Made by a program: the position numbers and the translations under genes. A DNA stretch of 64,000 nt from Clostridia bacterium. Lineage in GTDB: Bacteria; Bacillota; Clostridia; Oscillospirales; CAG-272. Where the stretch lies: positions 83,311-147,310 of the forward strand of contig JAGATD010000033.1 in assembly GCA_017621415.1 (NCBI GenBank). The letters run 5' to 3'. The notes under the pieces are model-generated. The model did no database searches and was not told the origin of the DNA. It worked only from the letters and a program-made list of their open reading frames with translations. Positions within the stretch are counted from its first letter, which is position 1; the number at the start of each line of letters is the position of its first letter. Of the stretch, positions 1 through 64,000 are shown in pieces.

Positions 1-719
1 GCGGCGAAACGGTTACTCCGGAAATTCCTACAGGATATCAGCCCGGAAACGGAAAGTTCTATAATGACAGAGCAAATATCACAGGCGGTTCTGTATCGGT
101 AAAGGACTTTAACGCAACCACAACAGGTATAGGTGTAAACAATTCCAACGGAACCTCTAAGGTGGTTAAAGGAGTAAGCGAGTTTAATATGAGCGCAGCA
201 TCGGATTCTTATATAAGGATAGAGAATACGACATCTCCTACCGATCTTACAGAATATATCACTGTTTCCGAATTTGATATAAAGTTCTCGGGATTTGATA
301 TAAGTGCTATGAAAACGGCAGGAAATTACCCTTACTACTTTGCATATTTCCGCATTTACAACGGCAATGATTCGGGTGCAAATTACATCAGATTTGTGCT
401 GAATGATGACGGTGAGACTCTGTCACTTGGTACAAAGAACACTGCCGAAATAAAAATGGATGAGTGGTTCAATATTAGATTTGAAATAGTTTATAACGAA
501 GACGGATCAGCAGAATTCGACATTTACATTAACGGAGAGTTTGCAACCACCGTTAAGTACGATTCATTTGTTATGAAGTGCGGTAAGACATGGATATGCG
601 CAAATAGTAAGATGTATAAATCCGAGGCTGGAGCCGAGCAAGGCACAATATATCTTGATAACATCTATTACGGACACATTTCTTCGGAATATAAGACCGA
701 AGCAGAGGAAAATAGCTAA
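1..719 (+). CDS. 3' part of a gene open from the window edge; C-terminal LamG/concanavalin-like jelly-roll module of a secreted-protein family
   Basis: Frame 3 has no stop from nt 3 to the TAA at 717-719, so the listed GTG at 162 is unlikely to be the start. Motifs DEWFNIRFEIVYNEDG..DIYINGEF..IYLDNIYYG match the module recurring in 2299..3753, 40086..45326 (x3) and 46954..49146 (x2). Confidence 0.7.
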   Translation, partial: GETVTPEIPTGYQPGNGKFYNDRANITGGSVSVKDFNATTTGIGVNNSNGTSKVVKGVSEFNMSAASDSYIRIENTTSPTDLTEYITVSEFDIKFSGFDISAMKTAGNYPYYFAYFRIYNGNDSGANYIRFVLNDDGETLSLGTKNTAEIKMDEWFNIRFEIVYNEDGSAEFDIYINGEFATTVKYDSFVMKCGKTWICANSKMYKSEAGAEQGTIYLDNIYYGHISSEYKTEAEENS

Positions 720-49581: not shown

Positions 49582-49754
49582 TGATATATCTCTAACGAGA
49601 TATGATATACAGCTTTGCCGTATGATATATTTTCACTTCGTGAAAACATGATATAATATCCGTTCCTGAATATGCCGCAGGCATATATCATCGCTCGTAG
49701 AGCGATATCATACCAAAGGAATATCACCCGTTCCGCAGAGGAACGGATATCATT
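49582..49754. repeat. array of eight (A)TGATAT(A) motifs, four forward then four reverse, interleaved with short tetraloop-type hairpins
   Basis: ATGATATA at 49582, 49603, 49623 and 49649. Reverse complement (T/G)ATATCAT at 49685, 49705 and 49747, plus a partial AATATCAC at 49721. Hairpins: ATATCTC-TAAC-GAGATAT, TTTTCAC-TTCG-TGAAAA, ATATGCC-GCA-GGCATAT, CGCTC-GTA-GAGCG, CCGTTCC-GCAGA-GGAACGG. Confidence 0.7.
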
Positions 49755-49801
49755 GAGGCGCACTCCGTAAGGACGTGCGCCTCGAAAGAAGGGCTTTTTT
49801 A

Positions 49802-52642: not shown

Positions 52643-55156
52643 TTAAGATTTTGCCGGTCCTGCGGTGTCGGAGCCGTCTCCGACCAGTCCGAGGCGCTTT
52701 GCGGCATCCTCTCTCATCTTATATTTAAGAACCTTTCCCGCAGCATTCATAGGGAAGCTGTTAACAAATTCAATGTACTTCGGAACCTTATGACGCGCCA
52801 TACTTGCCTTAATGTAGTCGGACATTTCCTCAACGGTAACGCTACCCGGCTCTTTAAGGATAATGCAAGCCATAATTTCCTCACCGTATTTTTTATCGGG
52901 AACACCGATAACCTGTACGTCCTTTGTCTGAGGGTGAGTATAGATGAACTCCTCAATTTCTTTAGGATAAATATTTTCGCCTCCGCGGATTATCATATCC
53001 TTAAGACGTCCTGTAATGCGGTAGTTGCCATCCTCGTCACGGGATGCAAGGTCGCCCGAGTGAAGCCAGCCGTCCTCGTCTATTGTGCCCTTTGTTGCCA
53101 TAGGCATTTTGTAATAGCCTTTCATCTGGTTGTAGCCCTTGGCGCAGAACTCACCGTTAACACCGGGTCCAACCTCTTCGCCTGTTTCGGGGTCTACTAT
53201 CTTGCAGCGAACGTGCGGGAATGCGTATCCAACCGTTTCGGTACGCACCTCAAGTGAGTCAGTCCAGGAGCTCATTGTGTTTCCGGGAGCGCATTCGGTC
53301 TGACCGTAAACGCTGACAATACCTGTCATATTCATTTCATCGGGCCTTGCGGCTCTGCGCATAAGCTCAGGGGGACAGCCCGCACCTGCCATAATACCTG
53401 TTCTCATATGGGAGAAGTCGGTAGAACGGTAGCTTGGGTGGTTAAACATTGCGATAAACATCGTGGGAACGCCGTTAAAGCAGGTGATTTTTTCCTGATT
53501 TATACAAGCGAGAGATGATTTTGCGGAGAAGTATGGCATAGGACACATGGTAGTTCCGTGGGTCATTGATGATGTCATAGACAGTGTCATTCCGAAGCAG
53601 TGGAACATAGGCACCTGAATCATCATTCTGTCAGCGGTGGAAAGACCCATGCGGTCGCCTATACACTTGCCGTTATTTACAACATTGTAGTGAGTAAGCA
53701 TAACTCCCTTAGGGAAGCCTGTTGTTCCTGAGGTGTATTGCATGTTACATACATCGCTTGGGCGTACCGCCGCTGCCATTTTAGCAACCTGCTCGGAGCT
53801 TACAAGCTTGTATCTTGCCATAGCCTCGTCAAAGGTGAGAGAGCCGGGCTGCTTGAAGCCTACTGTAATAACATTTCTGAGGAATGGCAGCTTCTTTGAA
53901 TGAAGAGGCTCGCCGGGAACGGTGTCTTTTATTTCGGGACAGAGTGTGTTTATAATTTCCTTGTAGTTTGAGTCAAGGCAGCTGTCAATCATAACCAGTG
54001 TATGGGTATCAGACTGACGGAGCAGGTACTCGGCCTCGTGAATCTTATATGCGGTGTTAACTGTGACAAGAACTGCACCGAGCTTTACGGTAGCCCAGAA
54101 TGTGATATACCACGCGGGAAGGTTTGTTGCCCATATTGCAACCTTAGAGCCCGCCTTTACACCAAGAGAAACAAGAGCTCTTGCAAAGCGGTCAACGTCC
54201 TCACGGAACTCGGCATAGGTTCTTGTGTAATCAAGTGTTGTGTACTTAAAGCAGTACTGGTCAGGGAACTCGTCGGCAACTCTGTCAAGCACCTGTGAAA
54301 ATGTAAGGTCGATAAGCTCGTCTTTTTTCCACACATACTGGCCTGTGCCGTCATGGTTGAAGTAGAGTTTCTTTTTCATATCCCTTGTTGAATGGAAGCG
54401 GGACATGTAGTTTACAAAATGAGGGAAAATAATTTCGGGGTCAGAGAGCTCGTCGAGCCACTCGGGCTTCCACTCAAGAGAGATAAAGTTATCGTAGTTT
54501 ACCGAGGAAAGAGCGCGCATAACGTCGTCAATAGGCATACTGCCCTCGCCGATAAGCTGATATGTTCCCTCATCGTCAGAGTCTCTTAAGTGAACATGGC
54601 GCACATAGCAGCCAAGGTTTTTTATTGTATCATCACCCGACTCACCGTTGTCTCTGTATGGGTGATGAACGTCCCAAAGAACCGCAAGATTGTCGCTTGC
54701 AAAACGGTCAAGCATATCTCTAAGTCTTGCTGTGTTTGAATAAATTCCGCTTGTTTTTACAAGAATTGTAACATCCGAGGCTTCAGCATAAGGTAAAAGC
54801 TCGGTGAGCACCGAATATACAGTATCCTCATTGTCATTAAGCGCGCATACAACAACATAGGGCACACGGCTGTCGCTTGCAGTATTTATAAGAGACTTTA
54901 CGGTATCCTTTACAGATGGGTCTTTGGAGATGTCGCAGGATGTGTCAAAGCAGGGAATAGTGAGCTGCTTTTCGCGAAGAGTGCGCACTGTTGCAGCAGT
55001 ATTATACTTGTGGAAAGGACCTCCGCGGTCGGTAAGAGCATTAAAGCTTTGAAGATTATAAACCTCTATGCCGGAAAAACCCATTTCCTGCGCTGTTTCC
55101 AGCATTTCATCAAAGGACAGCCCCGGCCAGCCTCTTGTGGAAAAGGAGAGCTTCAT
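52643..55156 (-). CDS. fusion protein: N-terminal xylose-isomerase-like TIM barrel (~270 aa) + C-terminal AMP-forming acyl-CoA synthetase/ligase (~560 aa)
   Basis: N-terminus: MKLSFSTRGW...GFSGIEVY...HVHLRD...SLEW. C-terminus: AMP-binding motif YTSGTTGFPKGV, GYGQTE-like VYGQTE, WLHSGDL, GRLKDMIIRGGENIYPKEIE. ATGA overlap with the upstream gene. Confidence 0.85.
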   Translation of the reverse strand: MKLSFSTRGWPGLSFDEMLETAQEMGFSGIEVYNLQSFNALTDRGGPFHKYNTAATVRTLREKQLTIPCFDTSCDISKDPSVKDTVKSLINTASDSRVPYVVVCALNDNEDTVYSVLTELLPYAEASDVTILVKTSGIYSNTARLRDMLDRFASDNLAVLWDVHHPYRDNGESGDDTIKNLGCYVRHVHLRDSDDEGTYQLIGEGSMPIDDVMRALSSVNYDNFISLEWKPEWLDELSDPEIIFPHFVNYMSRFHSTRDMKKKLYFNHDGTGQYVWKKDELIDLTFSQVLDRVADEFPDQYCFKYTTLDYTRTYAEFREDVDRFARALVSLGVKAGSKVAIWATNLPAWYITFWATVKLGAVLVTVNTAYKIHEAEYLLRQSDTHTLVMIDSCLDSNYKEIINTLCPEIKDTVPGEPLHSKKLPFLRNVITVGFKQPGSLTFDEAMARYKLVSSEQVAKMAAAVRPSDVCNMQYTSGTTGFPKGVMLTHYNVVNNGKCIGDRMGLSTADRMMIQVPMFHCFGMTLSMTSSMTHGTTMCPMPYFSAKSSLACINQEKITCFNGVPTMFIAMFNHPSYRSTDFSHMRTGIMAGAGCPPELMRRAARPDEMNMTGIVSVYGQTECAPGNTMSSWTDSLEVRTETVGYAFPHVRCKIVDPETGEEVGPGVNGEFCAKGYNQMKGYYKMPMATKGTIDEDGWLHSGDLASRDEDGNYRITGRLKDMIIRGGENIYPKEIEEFIYTHPQTKDVQVIGVPDKKYGEEIMACIILKEPGSVTVEEMSDYIKASMARHKVPKYIEFVNSFPMNAAGKVLKYKMREDAAKRLGLVGDGSDTAGPAKS

Positions 55157-56556
55157 TCTACTTCCTCCTCGTAAATTATTTTGTTAAGTGCACTGAGATA
55201 CGCCTGTATACCAGCGCCTACAATGTCGGTGGATATTCCTCTTCCGGAATACACCTTTGCGCCCGAGCGGAGCTTGACAATGGTCTGTCCCATAGCCTCG
55301 CGACCTTCGGTTACTGCCTGGAGCTGGAAGTCATCAAGCTCGTAGTGGCAGCCGGTGATTTTTTCAATAGCCTGGAATGCGGCATCGATAGAGCCGTCTC
55401 CGATATACACACCCTCGGTGGGCATGCCGTTTTTCAAGAGCTTGATATGAGCGGTGGCGGAAATGGTATTTCCGGATGTAATAACATAGGTGTCAAGCTT
55501 GTATGTAGGCGGAACCTGCATGGCAGATGACGCAACTATTGCATCAAGCTCCTTTAAGCCAACCTTTTCCTTTTTCTCTGCAATTTGCATGAATGCGTTA
55601 TATACCTTAACACTGTCCTCCTCAGAGAGGTCATAGCCAAGCCTCTGGACCGCAAGAGTCACTGCGGCTATGTCATCGTGAGAGGTAAGATAAATGTCGG
55701 ATTCCTCGCTTTGTGTGGCTGCGACTGCATTTTTCTTTCCGGGATGGCACATCCAGTTTATCTGGTCAATTATTCTGCTGAGCTGAGTTGTTTTAACCCC
55801 GCTGAATGCATCAAGAGTATCCGACTTTGCCGCAAGTATACGCGCAATATTCGCAACAGATGCCGCATCAATGGGATATGCCGCAGCTCTTATCTGCTCA
55901 GCTCCTGCGGATGCTGCGGCAATTGCGCAGGCATCTGCCATAGAAATCGCATCAGAGCAGCAAACACCGAGGCATACTTTTTTTAGCTCGGGAAGATTTT
56001 CATATTGGAGCTTAATGAATGCCGCAAATTCATCAGGAAGCATAGCGCTTGCCGTATCGCAAACTGTAACAGTTGTCGCTCCCGCATCAATTGCCGTTTT
56101 TAATGCCAATGTAAGGAAGGATTGCTCGCTCCTTGTTGCGTCGCCTGCAATAAATTCAACATCGGGGCAGAGAGATGCGCACTTTGCGACAGATGTTTTT
56201 ATAGCCTCTATCATCGCATCGGGCTTCTTGTGGAACAGATATTCAATCTGCACGGCGCTTGTAGGCGCAAACACCTGAAGCCTCGGCTTTTTAGCAGTCT
56301 TTAAAGCTGCCCATGTAGCCTCAATGCTTTCATTATTTAATTCTACGGGAACGGCAACGGCGCTGTCGGCAACGGCCGCTGCAATAGACTTTATACGAAG
56401 GGAGTCAATACGGGCGTTGCTTATTCCCTCAAGCTCAATCACGTCAACTCCGAGCTTGTCAAGCAGCTTCGAAAATTCTATCTTTTCTTTAAATGATAGG
56501 TTAAAGTTTTCGGATATCTGCTTCATTGTTGCATCGCTGATTTTGATTTGTTTCAT
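55153..56556 (-). CDS. 2-isopropylmalate-synthase-like protein with degenerate catalytic motifs but an intact LeuA C-terminal regulatory domain
   Basis: Collinear with LeuA (PRLQVFAPTS, DVEFIAGDATRSE, DAGATTV.VCDT; C-terminal Y.L....TSG......A.I.L..NG....GV..G.GSIDAAF.AI..I). TLRDGEQ is replaced by ATMKQIS and HxH(D/N)D by CCSDA. Start at ATG 56556 behind AAGGAG. Confidence 0.8.
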   Translation of the reverse strand: MKQIKISDATMKQISENFNLSFKEKIEFSKLLDKLGVDVIELEGISNARIDSLRIKSIAAAVADSAVAVPVELNNESIEATWAALKTAKKPRLQVFAPTSAVQIEYLFHKKPDAMIEAIKTSVAKCASLCPDVEFIAGDATRSEQSFLTLALKTAIDAGATTVTVCDTASAMLPDEFAAFIKLQYENLPELKKVCLGVCCSDAISMADACAIAAASAGAEQIRAAAYPIDAASVANIARILAAKSDTLDAFSGVKTTQLSRIIDQINWMCHPGKKNAVAATQSEESDIYLTSHDDIAAVTLAVQRLGYDLSEEDSVKVYNAFMQIAEKKEKVGLKELDAIVASSAMQVPPTYKLDTYVITSGNTISATAHIKLLKNGMPTEGVYIGDGSIDAAFQAIEKITGCHYELDDFQLQAVTEGREAMGQTIVKLRSGAKVYSGRGISTDIVGAGIQAYLSALNKIIYEEEVE

Positions 56557-56605
56557 AACTTTTTCTCCTTTCAATATAAAAACAAACGTCAGTAAAATAG
56601 CAATT

Positions 56606-56880
56606 CAAAAAAACAAAAATCCCTGAGGCTGCCAAACGCAGCTTCAGGGACGAAAATACATTTCGCGGTACCACCCTGATTATCCCCCAAAAAGGGAAAT
56701 CTCTCAACCTCAAACAAGGTATTGCCCTGTAACGGTGGCATCCGTGTCTCATTACTCGCGTATCGCTTTGACAAGACCGACTCGGGAAGAAGAATGCCCA
56801 ACCCATCCGTATCGGCTTACACCAACCGCCGACTCTCTGCAACATCCGAAAAGGGCAAGATTTCCGTCACTGTCTTTAAG
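56606..56880 (-). promoter_or_regulatory. T-box leader (tRNA-sensing riboswitch) with terminator/antiterminator
   Basis: On the - strand: K-turn GACAGUGACGGAA, AGAGAG box, distal GGUUGGUGUAAGCC, F-box CCGUUA, T-box AAUCAGGGUGGUACCGCG. Terminator CCCUGAAGCUGC-GUUU-GGCAGCCUCAGGG followed by AUUUUUGUUUUUUU. Confidence 0.9.
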
Positions 56881-56932: not shown

Positions 56933-57028
56933 GAGAAAATTTGAAAAAATGAACATATTTGTCATTTGTGTCAAAAAAGGATTTAAGCTTTCAGCATAAT
57001 TTTGGATATTTTAACAACAAAAAAATGT

Positions 57029-57057
57029 TTGACATTTGAAAAAAGATGTGGTACAAT
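57029..57057 (+). promoter_or_regulatory. promoter for the + strand T-box operon
   Basis: TTGACA (57029-57034), 17 bp, TGgTACAAT extended -10 (57052-57057). Confidence 0.6.
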
Positions 57058-57065
57058 AAACTCAT

Positions 57066-57316
57066 AAAAACTGTGACGAAGACGGTACGGTGAAAAAGTT
57101 CTCAGAGAATCGGCGGTTGGTGTGAGCCGATAGCTTGTAGCCTCAGTGCCTATCACTTCCGAGTTGGTGGTTCGAGCGATTATCGCCAGGGCTTACCCGT
57201 GCACCCGCGTTAAGGGATAGGGCTTGTTGGAGTCTGAAGCGGCGATCTATCGCAATTTGAGTGGTACCGCGGGTATATTTACTCGTCTCAAGAATTATTT
57301 CTTGAGATTTTTTTGT
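57066..57316 (+). promoter_or_regulatory. T-box leader (tRNA-sensing riboswitch) with terminator/antiterminator
   Basis: K-turn AACUGUGACGAAG, AGAGAA box, distal GGUUGGUGUGAGCC, F-box-like GCGUUAA, T-box AAUUUGAGUGGUACCGCG. Terminator UCUCAAG-(7 nt)-CUUGAGA followed by UUUUUUU. Confidence 0.9.
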
Positions 57317-57442: not shown

Positions 57443-59710
57443 ATGACGAAACAAACCGAAACAAATCAACTTCAGAGGATAGCGCTTCGAATTCGCGAAA
57501 TGCGTCAGATTCTCGGTTTTACTACGGCGGAGATGGCAGAGAAAACAGATCTCACAGAAGAGACCTATCTCTCATACGAGTCGGGCACAGTTGATTTACC
57601 ATTTACATTTATGCACAAGTGTGCGAAGGTGTGCGGCATAGAGATTACCGATATTCTTGAGGGACACAGCGCAAAGCTGTCGGGATATACAATCACCCGC
57701 AAGGGCGAGGGACTCACTACTGCCAGCGAGGACGGCATCACCATTCAGGATATGGCGCCTCTCTTCCGTCAGAAGCTTGCAACCCCATATTGGGTTACAT
57801 ATAAATATTCCGAGGAGCTTCAGAGCCAGCCTATAAGCACGGTTACTCACGCAGGTCAGGAGTTTGACCTTGTATTAAAGGGTGCTATGCGTATCCGTGT
57901 TGGCGAGAAGGAAGAGGTTCTTCGCGAGGGCGACAGCATCTTCTATAAATCCTCAACACCCCACGGTATGATTGCTGTTGAGGGTGAGGATTGCGTATTC
58001 CTTGCAATGGTTATGGCAAGCGATACAACCGATACTCCTATGTATATCGGAAACGGTGACTACAAGGTGTCTGAGAGACCTCTTCTTTGTGAGAAGTTTG
58101 TTAAGCCTGTTGAGGACGAGAACGGAGTTCTTGTTGATATTAATTATGAGAATGAAGAAAAGTATAACTTTGCCTTTGATACAGTTGACGAAATAGCCCG
58201 TAAGTATCCCGATAAGCTGGCTATGCTCCATATTTCTAACGATATGACAGAGCGCCGCTTTACATTTAAGGATATGAAAGATGCCTCCTCACAGAGCGCA
58301 AACTACTTTAAGTCCCTGGGAATCAAGCGCGGCGACAGAGTTATGCTGGTGCTTAAGAGACATTACCAGTTCTGGTTTGCTATTCTCGGTCTTCATAAGC
58401 TTGGCGCTATTGCTATTCCCGCAACAAATCAGCTGGTAGAGCATGACTTTACCTATCGCTTCAAGGCGGCAGGAGTAAGCGCAATTCTCTGTACTGCAGA
58501 CGGTGATACCGCGCATCAGGCAGAGCTTGCAGAGGCAGCCAGCGGTCTTTCGCTTACCAAAATTATGGTTGGCGGAGAGAGAGAGGGCTGGCACAACTAC
58601 GACCGTGAGTTTGTTCTCTTCAGCCGTAGATATGTGCGTGAGGCTGATGCTCCCTGCGGAAGCGACCCTATGCTTATGCTGTTTACTTCGGGAACAACAG
58701 GCTATCCCAAGATGGCTATGCATTCATATAAGTATGCTCTCGGTCATTACGTAACCGCAAAATACTGGCACCTTTGCCGACCCGACGGATTACACTTTAC
58801 CATTTCCGAAACAGGATGGGGTAAGGCGCTTTGGGGTAAGCTTTACGGTCAATGGCTCTGCGAGGGCGCGGTATTTACCTACGACTTTGACAGATTTGAT
58901 TCGGCAAAGATTCTTCCTATGTTTGCCAAGTATAAAATCACCACATTCTGCGCGCCTCCCACAATGTACAGGATGCTTATCAAGCAGGATTTAAGTCAGT
59001 ATGACCTCTCCTCTATCCGCCACGCAACTACTGCGGGTGAGGCGCTTAACCCCGAGGTGTTCTATCAGTTTGAAAAGTCCACAGGGCTTCGTATCGCTGA
59101 GGGCTTCGGTCAGACCGAGATGACTCTCGGTATCGGAAACCTGCTTGGCACACAGCTTAAGCCCGGCGCTATGGGTAAGCCTATCCCCGGATATGGCATA
59201 GACCTTGTTGATACAGACGGAAATCCGGTTGCCGACGGTGTAAACGGTGAAATAGTTATCCGTACCGAGCCTAAAACCGCCTGCGGCGTATTCCTCGGTT
59301 ATTATCTCAACCAAGAGGCGACCGACAATGTATGGCATGACGGTATGTACCATACAGGCGACCTCGCTTGGCGCGATGAGGACGGATATTACTGGTATGT
59401 GGGACGCGCCGATGACGTTATCAAGTCTTCGGGCTACCGTATCGGTCCGTTCGAGATAGAGTCTACAATTATGGAGCTTCCTTATGTTCTTGAGTGCGGT
59501 GTTTGCGCAGCTCCCGACGAGGTTAGAGGTCAGGTTGTTAAGGCGTGCATCGTGCTTGTTAACGGAACAGAGGGCACAGAGGAGCTGAAAAAGGAAATTC
59601 AGAATTACGTAAAGCTTCATACAGCCCCCTACAAGTATCCCAGAATTGTAGAATTCCGCAAAGAACTGCCTAAAACAATAAGCGGTAAAATAATGAGAAA
59701 TAAGCTGTAA
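57443..59710 (+). CDS. fusion protein: XRE-type HTH + cupin domain (~190 aa) + medium-chain-type AMP-forming acyl-CoA synthetase
   Basis: HTH IREMRQILGFTTAEMAEKTDLTEETYLSYESG; cupin HAGQEFDLVLKG..R..VG......GDSIFY.S..PHGM. AMP-binding FTSGTTGYPK, GFGQTE, YHTGDLA, GRADDVIKSSGYRIGPFEIES and a C-terminal SGKI.R. Confidence 0.85.
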   Translation: MTKQTETNQLQRIALRIREMRQILGFTTAEMAEKTDLTEETYLSYESGTVDLPFTFMHKCAKVCGIEITDILEGHSAKLSGYTITRKGEGLTTASEDGITIQDMAPLFRQKLATPYWVTYKYSEELQSQPISTVTHAGQEFDLVLKGAMRIRVGEKEEVLREGDSIFYKSSTPHGMIAVEGEDCVFLAMVMASDTTDTPMYIGNGDYKVSERPLLCEKFVKPVEDENGVLVDINYENEEKYNFAFDTVDEIARKYPDKLAMLHISNDMTERRFTFKDMKDASSQSANYFKSLGIKRGDRVMLVLKRHYQFWFAILGLHKLGAIAIPATNQLVEHDFTYRFKAAGVSAILCTADGDTAHQAELAEAASGLSLTKIMVGGEREGWHNYDREFVLFSRRYVREADAPCGSDPMLMLFTSGTTGYPKMAMHSYKYALGHYVTAKYWHLCRPDGLHFTISETGWGKALWGKLYGQWLCEGAVFTYDFDRFDSAKILPMFAKYKITTFCAPPTMYRMLIKQDLSQYDLSSIRHATTAGEALNPEVFYQFEKSTGLRIAEGFGQTEMTLGIGNLLGTQLKPGAMGKPIPGYGIDLVDTDGNPVADGVNGEIVIRTEPKTACGVFLGYYLNQEATDNVWHDGMYHTGDLAWRDEDGYYWYVGRADDVIKSSGYRIGPFEIESTIMELPYVLECGVCAAPDEVRGQVVKACIVLVNGTEGTEELKKEIQNYVKLHTAPYKYPRIVEFRKELPKTISGKIMRNKL

Positions 59711-59757
59711 TTTTCAGCATAATTTATTGAACCAAAAGTGAAATTTATCAAAAAGTA

Positions 59758-59787
59758 TTGACAAGACCCGACAAGGTTATGTATAAT
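59758..59787 (+). promoter_or_regulatory. near-consensus sigma-A promoter in front of the second synthetase paralogue
   Basis: TTGACA (59758-59763), 18 bp, TATAAT (59782-59787). Confidence 0.6.
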
Positions 59788-59859
59788 ATAATTTGATAAA
59801 TTTTACTTTTAATAGATTTTTCTATCAAAAGACAGTAAACTTTGTAAAAGAGGTACGAT

Positions 59860-62145
59860 GTGGAACCGATTTTGAACGAAATGGAAAACAAAATAAAGCA
59901 AATAGCAAATCGTATAAAGGAGCTTCGTCTTATCACAGGTCTTTCTGTCCAGGAAATGGCTACTCGCACAGGTACTACTGTCGAGGAATACGAACAGTGC
60001 GAGGCAGGTAACCGCAACTTAAGCATTGCATTCCTTTATCACTGTACATTAAGCTTCGGCGTTGATATGGGAGATATCCTTGAGGGTAAAAGCCCCAAGC
60101 TCCGCTCGTATGCGCTTACACGCAAAGGCGACGGTCAGAAAATAGAGGAAGCTCATCATATGATAGGCTATAACCTTGCTTCCGGCTTCCGCAACCGTAT
60201 TGCATTGCCGCTTTATATGGAACTTGGATATCGCGAGGGCTCGGAAAATCAGCCTATTGATCTTGTAACTCACGAGGGTCAGGAATGTGATATCGTGATT
60301 AAGGGTCAAATGAAAATTCAGATTGGCGACCACTCTGAGATACTGAATCCCGGCGATTGTATTTATTATGACTCCGGCACACCCCACGGTATGATTGCCG
60401 TAAACGGCGAGGATTGTACATTCTATGCTATCGTGCTCCGCAACCAGGCGGCAAGAGAGGGTGAGCAGGTAGCTGAAATGTCGGCTGCCACCAAGCGCCT
60501 TGAGGAGGATTCAAAGCGCCGTGTATATCACGACTTTATTATTCCAACCGAAGAAAACGGTGTTCTTAAGAAGATTGAATTCAAGAATGAAGAGAAGTTC
60601 AACTTTGCCTTTGATGTTGTTGATGCTCTTGGCAGACGCAAGCCCGAGAAGCTTGCTATGCTTCACGTAAGCGAGGACGGAACTGAAAGGCGCTTTACAT
60701 TCCGCGATATGAAAAAGGAGTCGGCAAGAGCTGCCAACTACTTTAAATCTCTGGGTATCAAGCGCGGTGATAGGGTAATGCTTGTTTTGAAGCGCCACTA
60801 TCAGTTCTGGTTTGCTATTCTTGGTTTACATAAGCTTGGTGCGGTTGCTATTCCCGCACCCAACCAGCTTCTAGAAAAGGACTTTAAATACCGCTTTGAG
60901 GCAGGTAAGGTAAAGGCTATACTCTGCACCTCTGACGGTGAGGTTGCCGATGCGGTAGATAAGGCAGCTGCTCAATGCCCCGGACTTGAATACAAGATAA
61001 TTGTGGGTAAGGACAGAGAGGGCTGGCATAACTTCAATGAGGAGTATGCTATCTTCAGCAGCCATTATGCCCGCACAGAGGATGCGCCCTGCGGCAGCGA
61101 CCCGATGCTGATGTACTTTACCTCGGGAACCAGCGGCTATCCCAAAATTGCGGCTCATAACTATAAATATCCTCTCGGTCACTTTATAACCGCTAAGTAT
61201 TGGCACCAGGTTAATCCCGAGGGACTTCACTTCACAATTTCCGATACAGGCTGGGCAAAGGCTATGTGGGGTAAGCTTTACGGCCAGTGGCTCTGTGAGG
61301 CGGCAAACTTTGTTTACGACTTTGACAGATTTGATGCCGAGAAGATACTTCCTCAGTTTGCAAAGCATAAGATTACTACATTCTGCGCACCTCCCACAAT
61401 GTACAGAATGCTGATAAAGCAGGATCTTTCAAGGTTTGACCTCTCTTCAATAGAGCATGCATCGACTGCGGGCGAGGCGCTTAACCCTGAGGTATTCCGC
61501 CAGTTTGAAAAGCACACAGGTCTTAAGATTATGGAGGGCTTCGGCCAGTCCGAGAGTACACTTATTATCGGTAATCTTGCGGGCGGCAGCCACAAGATAG
61601 GCTCTATGGGTAAGCCTGTTCCTCTTTACGACGTTCATCTTCTTAACCCCGACGGTGAGGAGGTTCAGAGAGGTGAAAGCGGTGAGATATGCATAAATAT
61701 CTCGAACGGACTTCCTTGCGGTCTTGCATATGCATATGAGGCAAACGAGGAGGTTACCCGCGAGACCTGGCGTGAGGGATATTATCACACAGGCGACGTT
61801 GCTTGGATGGATGAGGACGGATTCCTCTGGTATGTCGGACGCGCTGATGACGTTATTAAGTCCTCGGGCTACAGAATAGGTCCGTTTGAGATTGAGAACG
61901 TAATTATGGAGCTTCCTTATGTTCTTGAGTGCGGCGTTTCTGCCGCTCCCGATGAAATAAGAGGCCAGGTAGTTAAGGCAAGCATAGTTCTCGTTAGTGG
62001 TACCGAGGGAACAGACGAGCTGAAAAAAGAAATTCAGAATTACGTTAAGTCCCGTACCGCGCCTTACAAGTACCCAAGAATTGTGGAATTCCGTGAGAGT
62101 CTTCCTAAGACCACCAGCGGAAAGATTATAAGAAAACAACTTTAA
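59860..62145 (+). CDS. second HTH-cupin::acyl-CoA synthetase fusion (tandem paralogue of 57443..59710)
   Basis: Same architecture with long identical stretches (ANYFKSLGIKRGDRVMLVLKRHYQFWFAILGLHKLGA; ITTFCAPPTMYRMLIKQDLS; GRADDVIKSSGYRIGPFEIE). GTG at 59860 behind AGAGGT; alternative ATG at 59881. Confidence 0.85.
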   Translation: MEPILNEMENKIKQIANRIKELRLITGLSVQEMATRTGTTVEEYEQCEAGNRNLSIAFLYHCTLSFGVDMGDILEGKSPKLRSYALTRKGDGQKIEEAHHMIGYNLASGFRNRIALPLYMELGYREGSENQPIDLVTHEGQECDIVIKGQMKIQIGDHSEILNPGDCIYYDSGTPHGMIAVNGEDCTFYAIVLRNQAAREGEQVAEMSAATKRLEEDSKRRVYHDFIIPTEENGVLKKIEFKNEEKFNFAFDVVDALGRRKPEKLAMLHVSEDGTERRFTFRDMKKESARAANYFKSLGIKRGDRVMLVLKRHYQFWFAILGLHKLGAVAIPAPNQLLEKDFKYRFEAGKVKAILCTSDGEVADAVDKAAAQCPGLEYKIIVGKDREGWHNFNEEYAIFSSHYARTEDAPCGSDPMLMYFTSGTSGYPKIAAHNYKYPLGHFITAKYWHQVNPEGLHFTISDTGWAKAMWGKLYGQWLCEAANFVYDFDRFDAEKILPQFAKHKITTFCAPPTMYRMLIKQDLSRFDLSSIEHASTAGEALNPEVFRQFEKHTGLKIMEGFGQSESTLIIGNLAGGSHKIGSMGKPVPLYDVHLLNPDGEEVQRGESGEICINISNGLPCGLAYAYEANEEVTRETWREGYYHTGDVAWMDEDGFLWYVGRADDVIKSSGYRIGPFEIENVIMELPYVLECGVSAAPDEIRGQVVKASIVLVSGTEGTDELKKEIQNYVKSRTAPYKYPRIVEFRESLPKTTSGKIIRKQL

Positions 62146-62195: not shown

Positions 62196-62864
62196 ATGGA
62201 TTCTAAAAGATTAACTCTCTTTGCAGGGCACTATGGCAGCGGCAAAACCAACATTGCTGTAAACTATGCTTTACATCTTGCAGAGAAAGGGAAGAAAGTC
62301 TGTATTGCCGATCTGGATATTGTTAATCCGTATTTCAGAACGAAGGACAGCGAGAGGGAACTCAAGGAAGCCGGAATTGAGCTGGTTTCTCCAAAGTATG
62401 CTAACAGCAACGTGGACCTGCCTGCGCTGCCTGCCGAGAGCTACCGTCTTGTTCAGGATAAGTCTGTGTACGGTATAATGGATATCGGCGGCGATGACAG
62501 AGGCGCTTATGCGCTGGGTAGGTTTGCTGATTTTATAAAGGCAGAGGATGATTACCGTTTTGTCTTTGTGGTAAATTGCTTCCGGCCGCTTACCTCTACT
62601 GTTGATGACGCGATAGAAATCATGCGCGAAATTGAGAAGGCGGCGGGACTTGAGTTTACCTGTATAGTAAATAATTCCAATATTGGAAAAGAGACAACGA
62701 CAGAGCTGTTTTTGACAACGCTCGACTTTGTCCAAGACTTAAGCGAAAAAACAGGGCTTCCGATATGGATGCATACTGCGGAGCGCTCTGTTGCGGAGGG
62801 ACTTTCGGGTCTTACCGTTCTGCCTATGACGCTTCAAAAGAAATATTTTGACCTGCCCGACTGA
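62196..62864 (+). CDS. P-loop NTPase of the MinD/ParA/CooC-like (SIMIBI) type
   Basis: N-terminal Walker A GHYGSGKTNIA, DLDIVNPYF and MDIGGDD (Walker B-like); 222 aa. Confidence 0.7.
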   Translation: MDSKRLTLFAGHYGSGKTNIAVNYALHLAEKGKKVCIADLDIVNPYFRTKDSERELKEAGIELVSPKYANSNVDLPALPAESYRLVQDKSVYGIMDIGGDDRGAYALGRFADFIKAEDDYRFVFVVNCFRPLTSTVDDAIEIMREIEKAAGLEFTCIVNNSNIGKETTTELFLTTLDFVQDLSEKTGLPIWMHTAERSVAEGLSGLTVLPMTLQKKYFDLPD

Positions 62865-62905: not shown

Positions 62906-63112
62906 ATGGCAAAGGTAACTTTTAATACCGATATGTGTAAGGGCTGCGGTCTTTGTGTTGATGCGTGCCCTAAAAAATGTCTTGCGATTGCAGACGACAA
63001 GCTTAACCAAAAGGGCTACTCTCCCGCTTATATGAAAGAGCAGGAGAAGTGTATTGGATGCGCATTCTGTGCAACAATGTGCCCCGATTGTATAATTACT
63101 GTTGAAAAGTAA
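62906..63112 (+). CDS. 2x[4Fe-4S] ferredoxin-type delta subunit of a 2-oxoacid:ferredoxin oxidoreductase
   Basis: CKGCGLCVDACP and CIGCAFCATMCP motifs; 68 aa; immediately upstream of the alpha subunit. Confidence 0.85.
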   Translation: MAKVTFNTDMCKGCGLCVDACPKKCLAIADDKLNQKGYSPAYMKEQEKCIGCAFCATMCPDCIITVEK

Positions 63113-63127
63113 GGAAAGGAGACTGTT

Positions 63128-64000
63128 ATGGCAGAAAGAATTTTAATGAAAGGCAACGAGGCTATTGCTGAAGCTGCGATAAGAGCAGGTTGCCGTCACT
63201 ATTTTGGTTATCCTATCACTCCCCAGACTGAGATTGCCGCTTATATGGCAAAGAAAATGCCTAAGATTGGCGGAGTATTTCTTCAGGCAGAGAGCGAAAT
63301 TGCATCTATAAACATGGTATATGGCGCAGCTGCGGCAGGTATGCGTGTTATGACATCATCCTCCAGCCCCGGAGTTTCACTTAAGGCTGAGGGTCTTAGC
63401 TACATAGCCGGCTCTGATGTTCCCGCGCTTGTTGTTAACGTACAGAGAGGCGGCCCCGGTCTCGGCGGTATTCAGCCCTCTCAGTCTGATTATTTCCAGG
63501 CTACAAAGGGCGGCGGACACGGTGATTACCGTATGATAGTTCTTGCTCCCGCATCGGTTCAGGAAATGGCAAGTCTTACTATCAAGGGCTTCGACCTTGC
63601 TGATAAATACTGCGTTACCTCTATGATCCTTGCCGACGGAACAATCGGTCAGATGATGGAGCCTATTACCTTTGAGGACACCGAGCCTAAGGTTTATGAC
63701 AAGCCCTGGGCGCTTACAGGTACTGAGGGAAAGCGTAAGCACAATGTTGTTAACTCACTTTACCTTAAGCCCGACGAGCTTGAAAAGAAGAATTTCGAGC
63801 GTTATGAAAAATACGCTGAGATAGAGAAGAACGAGGCTATGTGGGAGGAATATATGATGGACGATGCCGAATATTGCGTTGTAGCATTCGGTATTGCATC
63901 CCGTGTAGCGAAGAATGCGGTAGTAGCCGCAAGAGAAGAGGGAATTAAGGTAGGTCTTATCCGTCCTATCACCCTTTGGCCCTTCCCCACAGCTGCTTTT
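63128..64000 (+). CDS. vorB: 2-oxoacid:ferredoxin oxidoreductase alpha subunit, VorB-like (3' end outside the window)
   Basis: Not in the ORF track because there is no stop before the window end. My translation: MAERILMKGNEAIAEAAIRAGCRHYFGYPITPQTEI....FLQAESEIASINMVYGAAAAGMRVMTSSSSPG...VVNVQRGGPGLG. Confidence 0.8.
   Translation, partial: MAERILMKGNEAIAEAAIRAGCRHYFGYPITPQTEIAAYMAKKMPKIGGVFLQAESEIASINMVYGAAAAGMRVMTSSSSPGVSLKAEGLSYIAGSDVPALVVNVQRGGPGLGGIQPSQSDYFQATKGGGHGDYRMIVLAPASVQEMASLTIKGFDLADKYCVTSMILADGTIGQMMEPITFEDTEPKVYDKPWALTGTEGKRKHNVVNSLYLKPDELEKKNFERYEKYAEIEKNEAMWEEYMMDDAEYCVVAFGIASRVAKNAVVAAREEGIKVGLIRPITLWPFPTAAF

Follow-up and report, generated by a model that had tools for sequence, protein, structure and literature searches.

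Closest described systems and the locus studied

Rumen bacteria and methanogens form leucine, isoleucine, and valine by carboxylation of branched volatile fatty acids, and the reductive carboxylation of branched acyl-CoA to the corresponding 2-oxo acid belongs to the classical physiology of both groups. The formation of leucine from isovalerate by this route has been described (PMC7356843). Among the synthetases that activate such acids, the AMP-forming medium-chain acyl-CoA synthetase MacsMa of Methanosarcina acetivorans prefers 2-methylbutyrate, is active by itself as a recombinant protein, and is reported to mishandle non-cognate acyl-adenylates (PMC10455477), while the methylbutyryl-CoA synthetase MbcS of Staphylococcus aureus selectively activates 2-methylbutyrate and isobutyrate and accepts isovalerate poorly (PMC10026030). 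Here we describe two adjacent genes, designated A and B, which encode synthetases of this kind fused to an N-terminal module composed of a helix-turn-helix-like (HTH-like) domain and a cupin. The genes are located in a 64,000-nucleotide stretch of the genome of a Clostridia bacterium (assembly GCA_017621415.1, contig JAGATD010000033.1, positions 83,311 to 147,310), referred to below as the window. The comparisons presented here demonstrate that the module is the fused form of a widespread separate gene, which adjoins orthologous synthetases in bacteria and archaea, and suggest that it probably does not bind DNA.

The combination of an HTH-like alpha-domain with a metal-binding cupin is known both from enzymes and from regulators. 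HppE-type enzymes perform O2-dependent phosphonate or N-oxygenation chemistry, and no DNA binding is known for the HTH-like domain of HppE, HEPD, MPnS, or SznF, so that this build need not bind DNA. The Escherichia coli proteins PuuR and SutR, which share the two-domain build, are annotated as DNA-binding regulators. Trigger enzymes offer a further comparison: BirA, NadR, and PutA are enzymes covalently linked to, or doubling as, regulators. The acyl-CoA ligase FadD1 of Pseudomonas aeruginosa binds promoters (PMC12754631). DNA binding has been demonstrated for all of these proteins, and FadD1 uses a leucine-zipper motif for it, not an HTH, whereas none of the features tested in the present locus supports DNA binding.

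Two fused paralogous synthetases

The proteins encoded by A and B are paralogous Macs/MbcS-type AMP-forming (ANL) synthetases with a fused HTH-like and cupin module. Open reading frames and Pfam searches confirmed the three-part architecture (XRE-HTH-like domain, Cupin_2, AMP-forming synthetase) proposed in the initial annotation, together with its coordinates and protein lengths (Table 1), and the cupin motif quoted there was found in both proteins. In A, all four domains exceeded their Pfam cutoffs, namely HTH_3 (27.2 bits, cutoff 23), Cupin_2 (43.7, cutoff 27.2), AMP-binding (217, cutoff 29.9), and AMP-binding_C (69, cutoff 24.5). In B, the Cupin_2 (44.0 bits), AMP-binding (193 bits), and AMP-binding_C (71 bits) matches were also above the cutoffs; the HTH remained below every Pfam HTH cutoff (HTH_19, 24.4 versus 30.2 bits), yet it aligned with the HTH-like domain of A. 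The two proteins were 61% identical across 753 residues. Both carried the ANL motifs (T/S)SGT(T/S)GxPK and the C-terminal SGK with the catalytic lysine, in the forms FTSGTTGYPK and PKTISGKIMR in A and FTSGTSGYPK and PKTTSGKIIR in B.

The best relative of solved structure was MacsMa (PDB 3ETC), with which the synthetase part of A aligned over 514 residues (E = 6e-180); the identity of MacsMa to the window synthetases was ~50–54% (tblastn). The best NCBIfam model for both proteins was MbcS, which A matched at 427 bits and B at 421 bits, against an equivalog cutoff of 850.

For comparison, 80 related loci were fetched from species-level Oscillospiraceae genomes (Faecousia, Lawsonibacter, and metagenome-assembled genomes from ruminant and other animal guts), and there were ~300 related loci beyond these. 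One of the relatives, L001, is 97% identical to the window. The linker between module and synthetase was the least conserved part of the proteins (54–62% identity among orthologues), in agreement with the variability ascribed to it at the outset. Contigs of relatives in two bovine gut metatranscriptomes indicated that the homologues are transcribed; this evidence is weak, and the contigs gave no 5' ends.

The module as the fused form of a widespread separate gene

A search with residues 1–204 against 1.8 billion representative proteins revealed 2075 relatives of the module, including other full-length fusions (758–768 aa). Standalone relatives of 183–190 aa aligned from residue 7 to residue 191 with 31–43% identity. 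Clustered at 90% identity, this standalone family still forms more than 7,600 groups; nearly every member is 184 aa long, and the family is named in the databases by its domain alone, as “XRE family transcriptional regulator.” None of the curated families claims the module, and the sole full-length NCBIfam similarity was a weak one to PuuR (model NF007408, 24.8–34.5 bits versus a cutoff of 211).

The genomic position of the standalone genes was examined in 80 reference-genome loci. All 74 assessable genes were followed directly, on the same strand and usually after a gap of 10–50 nt, by an acyl-CoA synthetase (ACS) gene, and the same arrangement was observed in two standalone members that were checked individually. 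The adjoining synthetases were 46–56% identical to the window synthetase domain. Hosts of the split pair include Bacteroides, Phocaeicola, Prevotella, Clostridia, Geobacter, spirochaetes, Methanocella, Methanolobus, and Methanobacteriaceae, and more than 590 species of bacteria and archaea encode a 184-aa protein directly upstream of a Macs-type synthetase. Three apparent fusions among the standalone loci were in fact neighbours in the same frame with a stop codon between them.

The reverse comparison, starting from MacsMa-type loci, gave the same picture. A module gene was located upstream in 72 of the 79 assessable loci, and 48 of these 72 also had vorB downstream. The 72 loci include those of other Methanosarcina with synthetases 84–96% identical to the crystallised MacsMa, where the genes form a cluster of HTH-cupin gene, synthetase, and 2-oxoacid:ferredoxin oxidoreductase (VOR). 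MacsMa itself is a standalone enzyme whose partner is encoded separately, ~200 nt upstream, whereas the window proteins are fused, duplicated, and under the control of T-box leaders. Since the module gene adjoins the orthologous synthetase across bacteria and archaea, the fusion in the window represents the Rosetta-stone counterpart of a gene pair that is both old and widespread. The partner is dispensable for catalysis, because recombinant MacsMa is active alone. We also considered the alternative that the N-terminal region belongs to the structure of some known synthetase subfamily that lacks an HTH; this is not the case, as the region is a separate, widespread module with an HTH fold.

Fold of the module and the cupin as a probable sensor

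The AlphaFold model of the module contained five HTH helices and had a within-domain pLDDT of 88–97. The best Foldseek matches of this model were HppE, Psf4, HEPD, MPnS, PhpD, and SznF (E ~1e-10), and HppE was in addition the sole full-length sequence match in the PDB. The one “regulator” among the matches, 1Y9Q, is a structural-genomics entry with no known functional data. Residues H136, E140, and H174, a 2-His-1-Glu triad, were invariant in 40 family members and aligned with the iron ligands of HppE and with their equivalents in PuuR; R86, Y82, and D164 were further invariant polar residues. Thus, the module shares with the HppE-type enzymes the HTH-like alpha-domain, the metal cupin, and the positions of the metal ligands. 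The identity is only ~20%, however, the relative orientation of the domains differs (TM ~0.35), and the hosts of the present genes are anaerobes.

To localise the differences between the paralogues, we counted positions at least 90% conserved within A-type and within B-type proteins yet different between the two types. Such fixed differences accounted for 19% of positions in the cupin, compared with 8% in the HTH, 8% in ACS-N, and 5% in ACS-C, and those in the cupin clustered at residues 91–118, a segment aligned with the substrate-binding region of HppE; residues 133, 141, 167, and 169 were further cupin positions that differ. Their density suggests that the cupin probably senses a ligand, that is, that it acts as a specificity-bearing sensor specialised in each paralogue.

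In the standalone partners the motif ERRKxYKYQSLA (E94, R95, Y99, Y101), which aligns with the HppE substrate-binding region, is nearly invariant. Residues 91–105 of A (57713–57757; ASEDGITIQDMA) and the equivalent residues of B have diverged from it and were modelled with low confidence.

The enzyme-like fold raises the question of whether the module has a metal-dependent catalytic or editing activity of its own, by which it would hydrolyse wrong acyl-AMP or acyl-CoA or isomerise a branched intermediate. The invariant triad and polar residues, the fact that the top structural neighbours are all enzymes of the same two-domain build, the strict one-to-one pairing with a single enzyme family, and the reported mishandling of non-cognate acyl-adenylates by MacsMa (PMC10455477) are all consistent with such a role. 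However, the triad is no sign of catalysis, because the regulator PuuR shares it. HppE-type enzymes are known to need O2, whereas the hosts are strict anaerobes, and the pathway discussed below has no apparent missing chemical step. An epimerase role is impossible for B because isobutyrate is achiral, and the “lid” segment of the standalone members has diverged in the fused copies. We therefore regard a catalytic module as quite improbable and retain the reading of the cupin as a sensor.

Evidence on DNA binding by the module

Five independent, indirect lines of evidence indicate that the module probably does not bind DNA. The HTH-like domain had a net charge between −1 and −7 in every orthologue of A and B and between −4 and −9 in standalone members, so that it was acidic in each member examined, whereas the matching segment has a charge of +3 in PuuR and +4 in SutR. 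For the helix 2-turn-helix 3 unit, the values were −2 to −6 in the module, −1 in PuuR, and +1 in SutR. Where helices 2 and 3 would contact DNA, PuuR carries Q-R-R and T-H-S and SutR S-R and S-K, whereas the module carries A/Q/E-E/D and T/V-E-E/D; glutamate or aspartate thus stands where the two regulators have residues such as arginine, lysine, glutamine, serine, or threonine. The family consensus there was [ST]xE[ED]xYxxYExG.

Purifying selection acts on the whole module, with dN/dS of ~0.06–0.07 for both the HTH and the cupin, values that are indicative only because dS was saturated (>1.3). Helix 3 was the least conserved and fastest-evolving part of the HTH and resembled the interdomain linker in this respect (0.17–0.21; 61% versus 72% identity in A).

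A search for operators gave negative results at both promoters of the locus and upstream of the standalone genes. In 60 loci, the divergent promoter region contained only two back-to-back promoters with −35 and extended −10 elements and A-tracts, and no operator-like element. The 5' untranslated regions behind P_B, the promoter of B, differed among clades and showed no footprint beyond the promoter in 56 loci. Upstream of 65 standalone genes, the top palindromic motif occurred in 3 loci, which equals the result for shuffled sequences; these regions share no palindrome despite the family-wide consensus of helix 3.

Candidate operators at the two promoters were rejected or found unconvincing. 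The 14-mer TTTCAGCATAATTT occurs at 56989–57002 and 59712–59725 (+), ~30 nt upstream of the −35 elements of P_A, the promoter of A, and P_B, and the observed match count was reached by no shuffle. It was absent from all 165 other loci compared, including the 97%-identical L001, and is strain-specific; its sequence resembles a portion of a CodY box. Past the −10 element of P_B, the inverted repeat TTTGATAA...TATCAAA was likewise not preserved in L001. The pair TGATAA/TTATCA after the −10 element was present in 9 of 56 loci belonging to a few close clades (shuffles: mean 2.6, maximum 9).

Another element was observed in Methanosarcina only (loci L167–L190), where a conserved AT-rich block, TGATAATGTATATTAATTATAATTTTCAATGGTTCTGGAAG, is located ~85–125 nt before the start of the HTH-cupin gene. 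The block forms an imperfect inverted repeat, TGATAAT-N8-ATTATAA, lies ~60 nt upstream of the BRE/TATA-like sequence AGGTTTTTAAG, and has flanks that are not conserved.

The initial annotation suggested that the fusion is a trigger enzyme. In such a model, the HTH would bind the promoter DNA of its own gene, the ligand of the cupin or the catalytic state would alter the binding, and autoregulation would thus be added to the T-box. The passing HTH_3 score of A, the distant relationship of the module to the repressor PuuR over its full length, and the database label of the family agree with this proposal, as do the inverted repeat directly after the −10 element of P_B and the one upstream of the partner gene in Methanosarcina. 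In addition, the promoter of B, which is free of a T-box in the window, would need other control, and precedents exist in FadD1 (PMC12754631) and also in BirA and NadR. The proposal was nevertheless not borne out by the acidic HTH with its Glu/Asp contacts, the fast evolution of helix 3, the lack of an operator, and the enzyme-like fold; transcription is already controlled by T-boxes, the inverted repeat and the 14-mer of the window are not kept even in the 97%-identical locus, and the pair is conserved over bacteria and archaea, whose promoter types differ. PuuR and SutR, which have the same build (PuuR also shares the metal triad and the weak full-length similarity), differ from the module in their basic HTH and in its contacts. 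We consider autoregulation by DNA binding unlikely, and prefer a module that acts on the attached enzyme.

T-box leaders and predicted substrates

T-box leaders switch genes on when the cognate tRNA is uncharged. The presence of such a leader before A, noted at the outset, was supported by Rfam (Table 1). Besides its specifier, it contains the T-box sequence AGUGGUACCGCG and an intrinsic terminator. The specifier position read ATC (Ile) in 78 of 78 readable loci, and the −35 and extended −10 elements of P_A were kept in 60 related loci.

The separate promoter predicted for B was also found, as a complete match to the consensus. Among the relatives, the spacer between A and B exists in three forms: with nothing but a σ70 promoter, which is the form in the window; with a promoter and a Val T-box; or as a short sequence of 15–44 nt with a ribosome-binding site (RBS), an arrangement that places B on the transcript of A. 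A promoter of the type TTGACN-16..19-TANNNT was located within the spacer in 56 of 72 related loci. The spacer was 340–515 nt long in 17 loci and contained an additional T-box core there, with the specifier GTC in 16 and GTG in one, both of which encode valine. The one leader of this type that was scored reached 89.6 bits, just under the gathering score of 93, with a match spanning the full model; none of the Val leaders reached the Rfam gathering score in the standard scan. On the opposite strand, the divergent leader had the specifier CTG in 33, CTC in 20, and CTT in 13 of 66 loci; all three are leucine codons, and the wobble position alone varies. Across the locus and its relatives there is thus one leader per branched-chain amino acid.

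The amino acids of the leaders of A and B, isoleucine and valine, correspond to the two acids favoured by MacsMa- and MbcS-type enzymes, and the selectivity of MbcS for 2-methylbutyrate and isobutyrate, but not isovalerate, fits this pair of leaders. The earlier suggestion that the paralogues serve different branched acids is supported by the Ile T-box at A, the Val T-box at B in relatives, and the closeness of both enzymes to MacsMa and MbcS. Most likely, A is a 2-methylbutyrate-CoA ligase and B an isobutyrate-CoA ligase, as predicted from these features.

The downstream oxidoreductase genes and the leucine branch

The genes after B encode a four-subunit VOR, of which the beta and gamma subunits were seen in L001. 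In that locus the full-length VorB scored 552 bits against the cutoff of 399, and the genes for beta and gamma follow, recognised below their own cutoffs. The P-loop NTPase encoded between B and vorD may deliver Fe-S clusters to VOR.

VOR genes were also located beside the split HTH-cupin/synthetase pair in 7 of the 80 standalone loci (L098, L122, L148, L155, L162, L163, and L164), with vorB in all seven and vorD detected in four. These loci belong to spirochaetes, Methanolobus, Methanobacteriaceae, and one genome each of the Desulfuromonadales and the Bacteroidaceae. As VOR adjoins the split pair in both bacteria and archaea, the link between ligase and VOR crosses the domains of life.

This adjacency in many lineages could also mean that the module is a scaffold, serving oligomerisation or docking the synthetase to VOR for direct hand-over of acyl-CoA, with no sensing. 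The fusion and the tight adjacency of the genes fit a physical complex, and cupins and the alpha-domains of HppE-type proteins form oligomer interfaces. However, most Bacteroidota loci have the pair with no VOR nearby, and neither the invariant metal triad nor the paralogue-specific differences in the cupin would be expected of a pure scaffold. We judge this explanation to be the least probable of those considered, the sensor reading of the module being preferred.

The genes on the opposite strand form an operon for which the divergent leader specifies leucine. The first gene encodes a catalytically degenerate LeuA-like protein, which has KQISE in place of RDGEQ and CCS in place of HxH, lacks GERAGN, and carries a deletion of ~28 aa that takes in SGIHQDG, while the C-terminal allosteric and dimerisation domain of LeuA is kept. 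Probably, this protein is a pseudo-enzyme that has been recruited as a partner for sensing leucine. The second gene, a fusion of a TIM barrel with an acyl-CoA synthetase of a different subfamily (TIM-ACS), is a candidate isovalerate-CoA ligase of the leucine branch. The pair is kept in most of the 80 loci, in which the order TIM-ACS (−), LeuA-like (−), A (+), B (+), P-loop NTPase, VorD, VorB is almost invariant; gene B is missing in 4 of them.

Table 1. Coordinates of the features discussed, as positions in the 64,000-nt window
Feature	Position	Strand	Remarks
Promoter P_A	57029..57057	+	TTGACA-17-TACAAT, TG-extended −10, 11/12 match; drives Ile T-box and gene A
T-box leader of A	57064..57293	+	Rfam RF00230, 94.5 bits versus gathering score 93
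Specifier of leader A	57152..57154	+	AUC (Ile), followed by A57155 and the stem CUUC
T-box intrinsic terminator	57285..57308	+	10-bp stem, then T-run to 57315
Gene A	57443..59710	+	755 aa; HTH-like ~57479–57667, cupin ~57680–58018, linker, synthetase ~58148–59707
Promoter P_B	59758..59787	+	TTGACA-18-TATAAT, 12/12 match; serves gene B and VOR genes; T-box-free in the window
Gene B	59860..62145	+	761 aa; GTG start at 59860, RBS AAAGAGG 6 nt before; HTH-like ~59902–60090, cupin ~60103–60441, synthetase ~60586–62142
P-loop NTPase	62196..62864	+	222 aa; CbiA/ParA/Mrp/ApbC-like, weak matches; between B and vorD wherever the contig reaches
Ferredoxin-like delta subunit (VorD)	62906..63112	+	2x[4Fe-4S]; OGOR_delta/PorD_KorD matches weak, below cutoffs; position conserved
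VorB (alpha subunit)	63128..64000	+	Cut by the window end; 482 bits (partial) versus cutoff 399
Divergent Leu T-box	56643..56879	−	Rfam, 112.4 bits; controls LeuA-like gene and TIM-ACS fusion
Context operon	52643..56574	−	LeuA-like gene, then TIM-ACS gene; 4-nt overlap
LeuA-like protein	55153..56574	−	473 aa; under Leu T-box; catalytically degenerate
TIM-ACS fusion	52643..55156	−	837 aa; xylose-isomerase-like TIM barrel (AP_endonuc_2) and PRK12583-like synthetase

Apart from these features, the small RNA Gut-1 (RF01706) was detected at 49680–49755 (−) with 54.9 bits (gathering score 50); it has no apparent link to A and B.

A model of starvation-gated salvage

Uncharged tRNA turns on the genes behind its T-box, ligases that form AMP work in the direction of acyl-CoA, and VOR would carboxylate the product; together, these points lead to a reading of the locus as a salvage route induced by starvation. 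The source would be branched volatile fatty acids, which are abundant in the gut. A would convert 2-methylbutyrate to 2-methylbutyryl-CoA and B isobutyrate to isobutyryl-CoA, VOR would reductively carboxylate the branched acyl-CoA, and the resulting 2-oxo acids would be transaminated to isoleucine and valine. Expression would be gated by amino-acid starvation through the tRNA-sensing T-boxes, for isoleucine at A, for valine at B in many relatives, and for leucine on the opposite strand. The predicted chemistry and the habitat are the same as in the carboxylation of branched volatile fatty acids by rumen bacteria and methanogens.

The same enzymes could instead supply branched starter units for membrane fatty acids or take part in catabolism. 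MbcS, for which neither an N-terminal module nor a T-box is known, feeds fatty-acid synthesis, VOR is reversible, and the operon has no aminotransferase. On the other hand, each of the specifiers for isoleucine, valine, and leucine has its counterpart among the three branched acids, ligases of the AMP-forming type favour acyl-CoA formation, and a transcript shared with VOR agrees with carboxylation to the 2-oxo acid. These other purposes appear highly improbable to us, and amino-acid salvage remains the preferred function.

In the salvage model, the HTH-like and cupin module would be a small-molecule sensor built on the 2-His-1-Glu site of the cupin and acting on the attached enzyme, either by feedback inhibition by the end product or by gating by the substrate, CoA, or acyl-CoA. 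The first committed enzyme of a biosynthetic pathway is usually feedback-controlled as well, and the leaders already sense the demand at the RNA level; direct control of the ligase therefore appears to be the likeliest role of the module. Such control by end product, substrate, or CoA status comes close to an even chance in our estimate. A parallel that supports it is the dead LeuA-like protein, which has retained its allosteric domain and stands beside a leucine-controlled synthetase.

The sequence comparisons establish the domain content, the paralogy, the T-box specifiers, the synteny with VOR, the relation of split and fused forms, purifying selection, and an acidic HTH for which no operator was found, whereas the substrates, the flux direction, and the allosteric role of the module are inferred. 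Several observations weigh against this interpretation. The MbcS scores of both proteins are about half of the equivalog cutoff, and the substrates of A and B were derived from homology and the leaders. The Rfam score of leader A lies barely above the gathering score, and that of leader B in relatives slightly below it; an aminotransferase gene is missing from the operon. The full-length AlphaFold model of A (pLDDT 56, pTM 0.37) is too poor to show the packing of module and enzyme and is unusable for this purpose because the synthetase alignment is shallow. As to DNA binding, the saturation of dS limits the comparison of substitution rates, PuuR, to which the module is remotely related and whose metal triad it shares, is a true repressor, and the AT-rich imperfect inverted repeat conserved in Methanosarcina is a candidate binding site. 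An acidic HTH and the absence of exact shared palindromes would also be compatible with degenerate or fast-co-evolving operators. Taking all this into account, we regard the complete model, with isoleucine and valine salvage by A, B, and VOR gated by starvation and with the module as an enzyme-controlling sensor, as equally likely to be right or wrong.

A more general proposal can be made tentatively, and we hold it to be possible without being probable: the 184-aa “XRE/cupin regulator,” found beside Macs-type synthetases in organisms ranging from Bacteroides to methanogens, would not be a transcription factor but an unrecognised allosteric sensor subunit with a re-used HTH fold, fused in Oscillospiraceae, which switches the synthetase in response to an amino-acid or acyl ligand. 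Together with the dead LeuA-like protein, it would then exemplify a general design of sensor plus CoA ligase for salvaging branched volatile fatty acids into isoleucine, valine, and leucine.

Novelty and significance

The enzyme core adds a new member to the Macs/MbcS kind, and T-box control of amino-acid genes is ordinary. In the literature searched, however, we found no paper that assigns these genes, T-box control, or an HTH-cupin partner to the carboxylation of branched acids. Descriptions of an obligate HTH-cupin partner of Macs-type synthetases or of its fusion, of a T-box-controlled salvage operon of CoA ligase and VOR with one leader per branched-chain amino acid, and of a dead LeuA partner of a third ligase were likewise not found there.

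Many anaerobes of the rumen and gut, and methanogens as well, need branched volatile fatty acids as nutrients. The conversion of these acids to isoleucine, valine, and leucine has been known physiologically for decades, but in the literature searched no paper linked genes or regulation to it. The locus provides a concrete and testable set of genes for it, with two specific CoA ligases and a third one, a VOR, and a leader for each amino acid. Furthermore, thousands of proteins that carry the name “XRE family transcriptional regulator” turn out to be tied obligately to a single enzyme family and may lack DNA binding, and their reinterpretation affects both annotation and the prediction of regulons. 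If the module is indeed an allosteric sensor, it would represent a new way of controlling an adenylate-forming enzyme, which could be studied in genetically tractable Bacteroides and beside MacsMa, an enzyme of solved structure.

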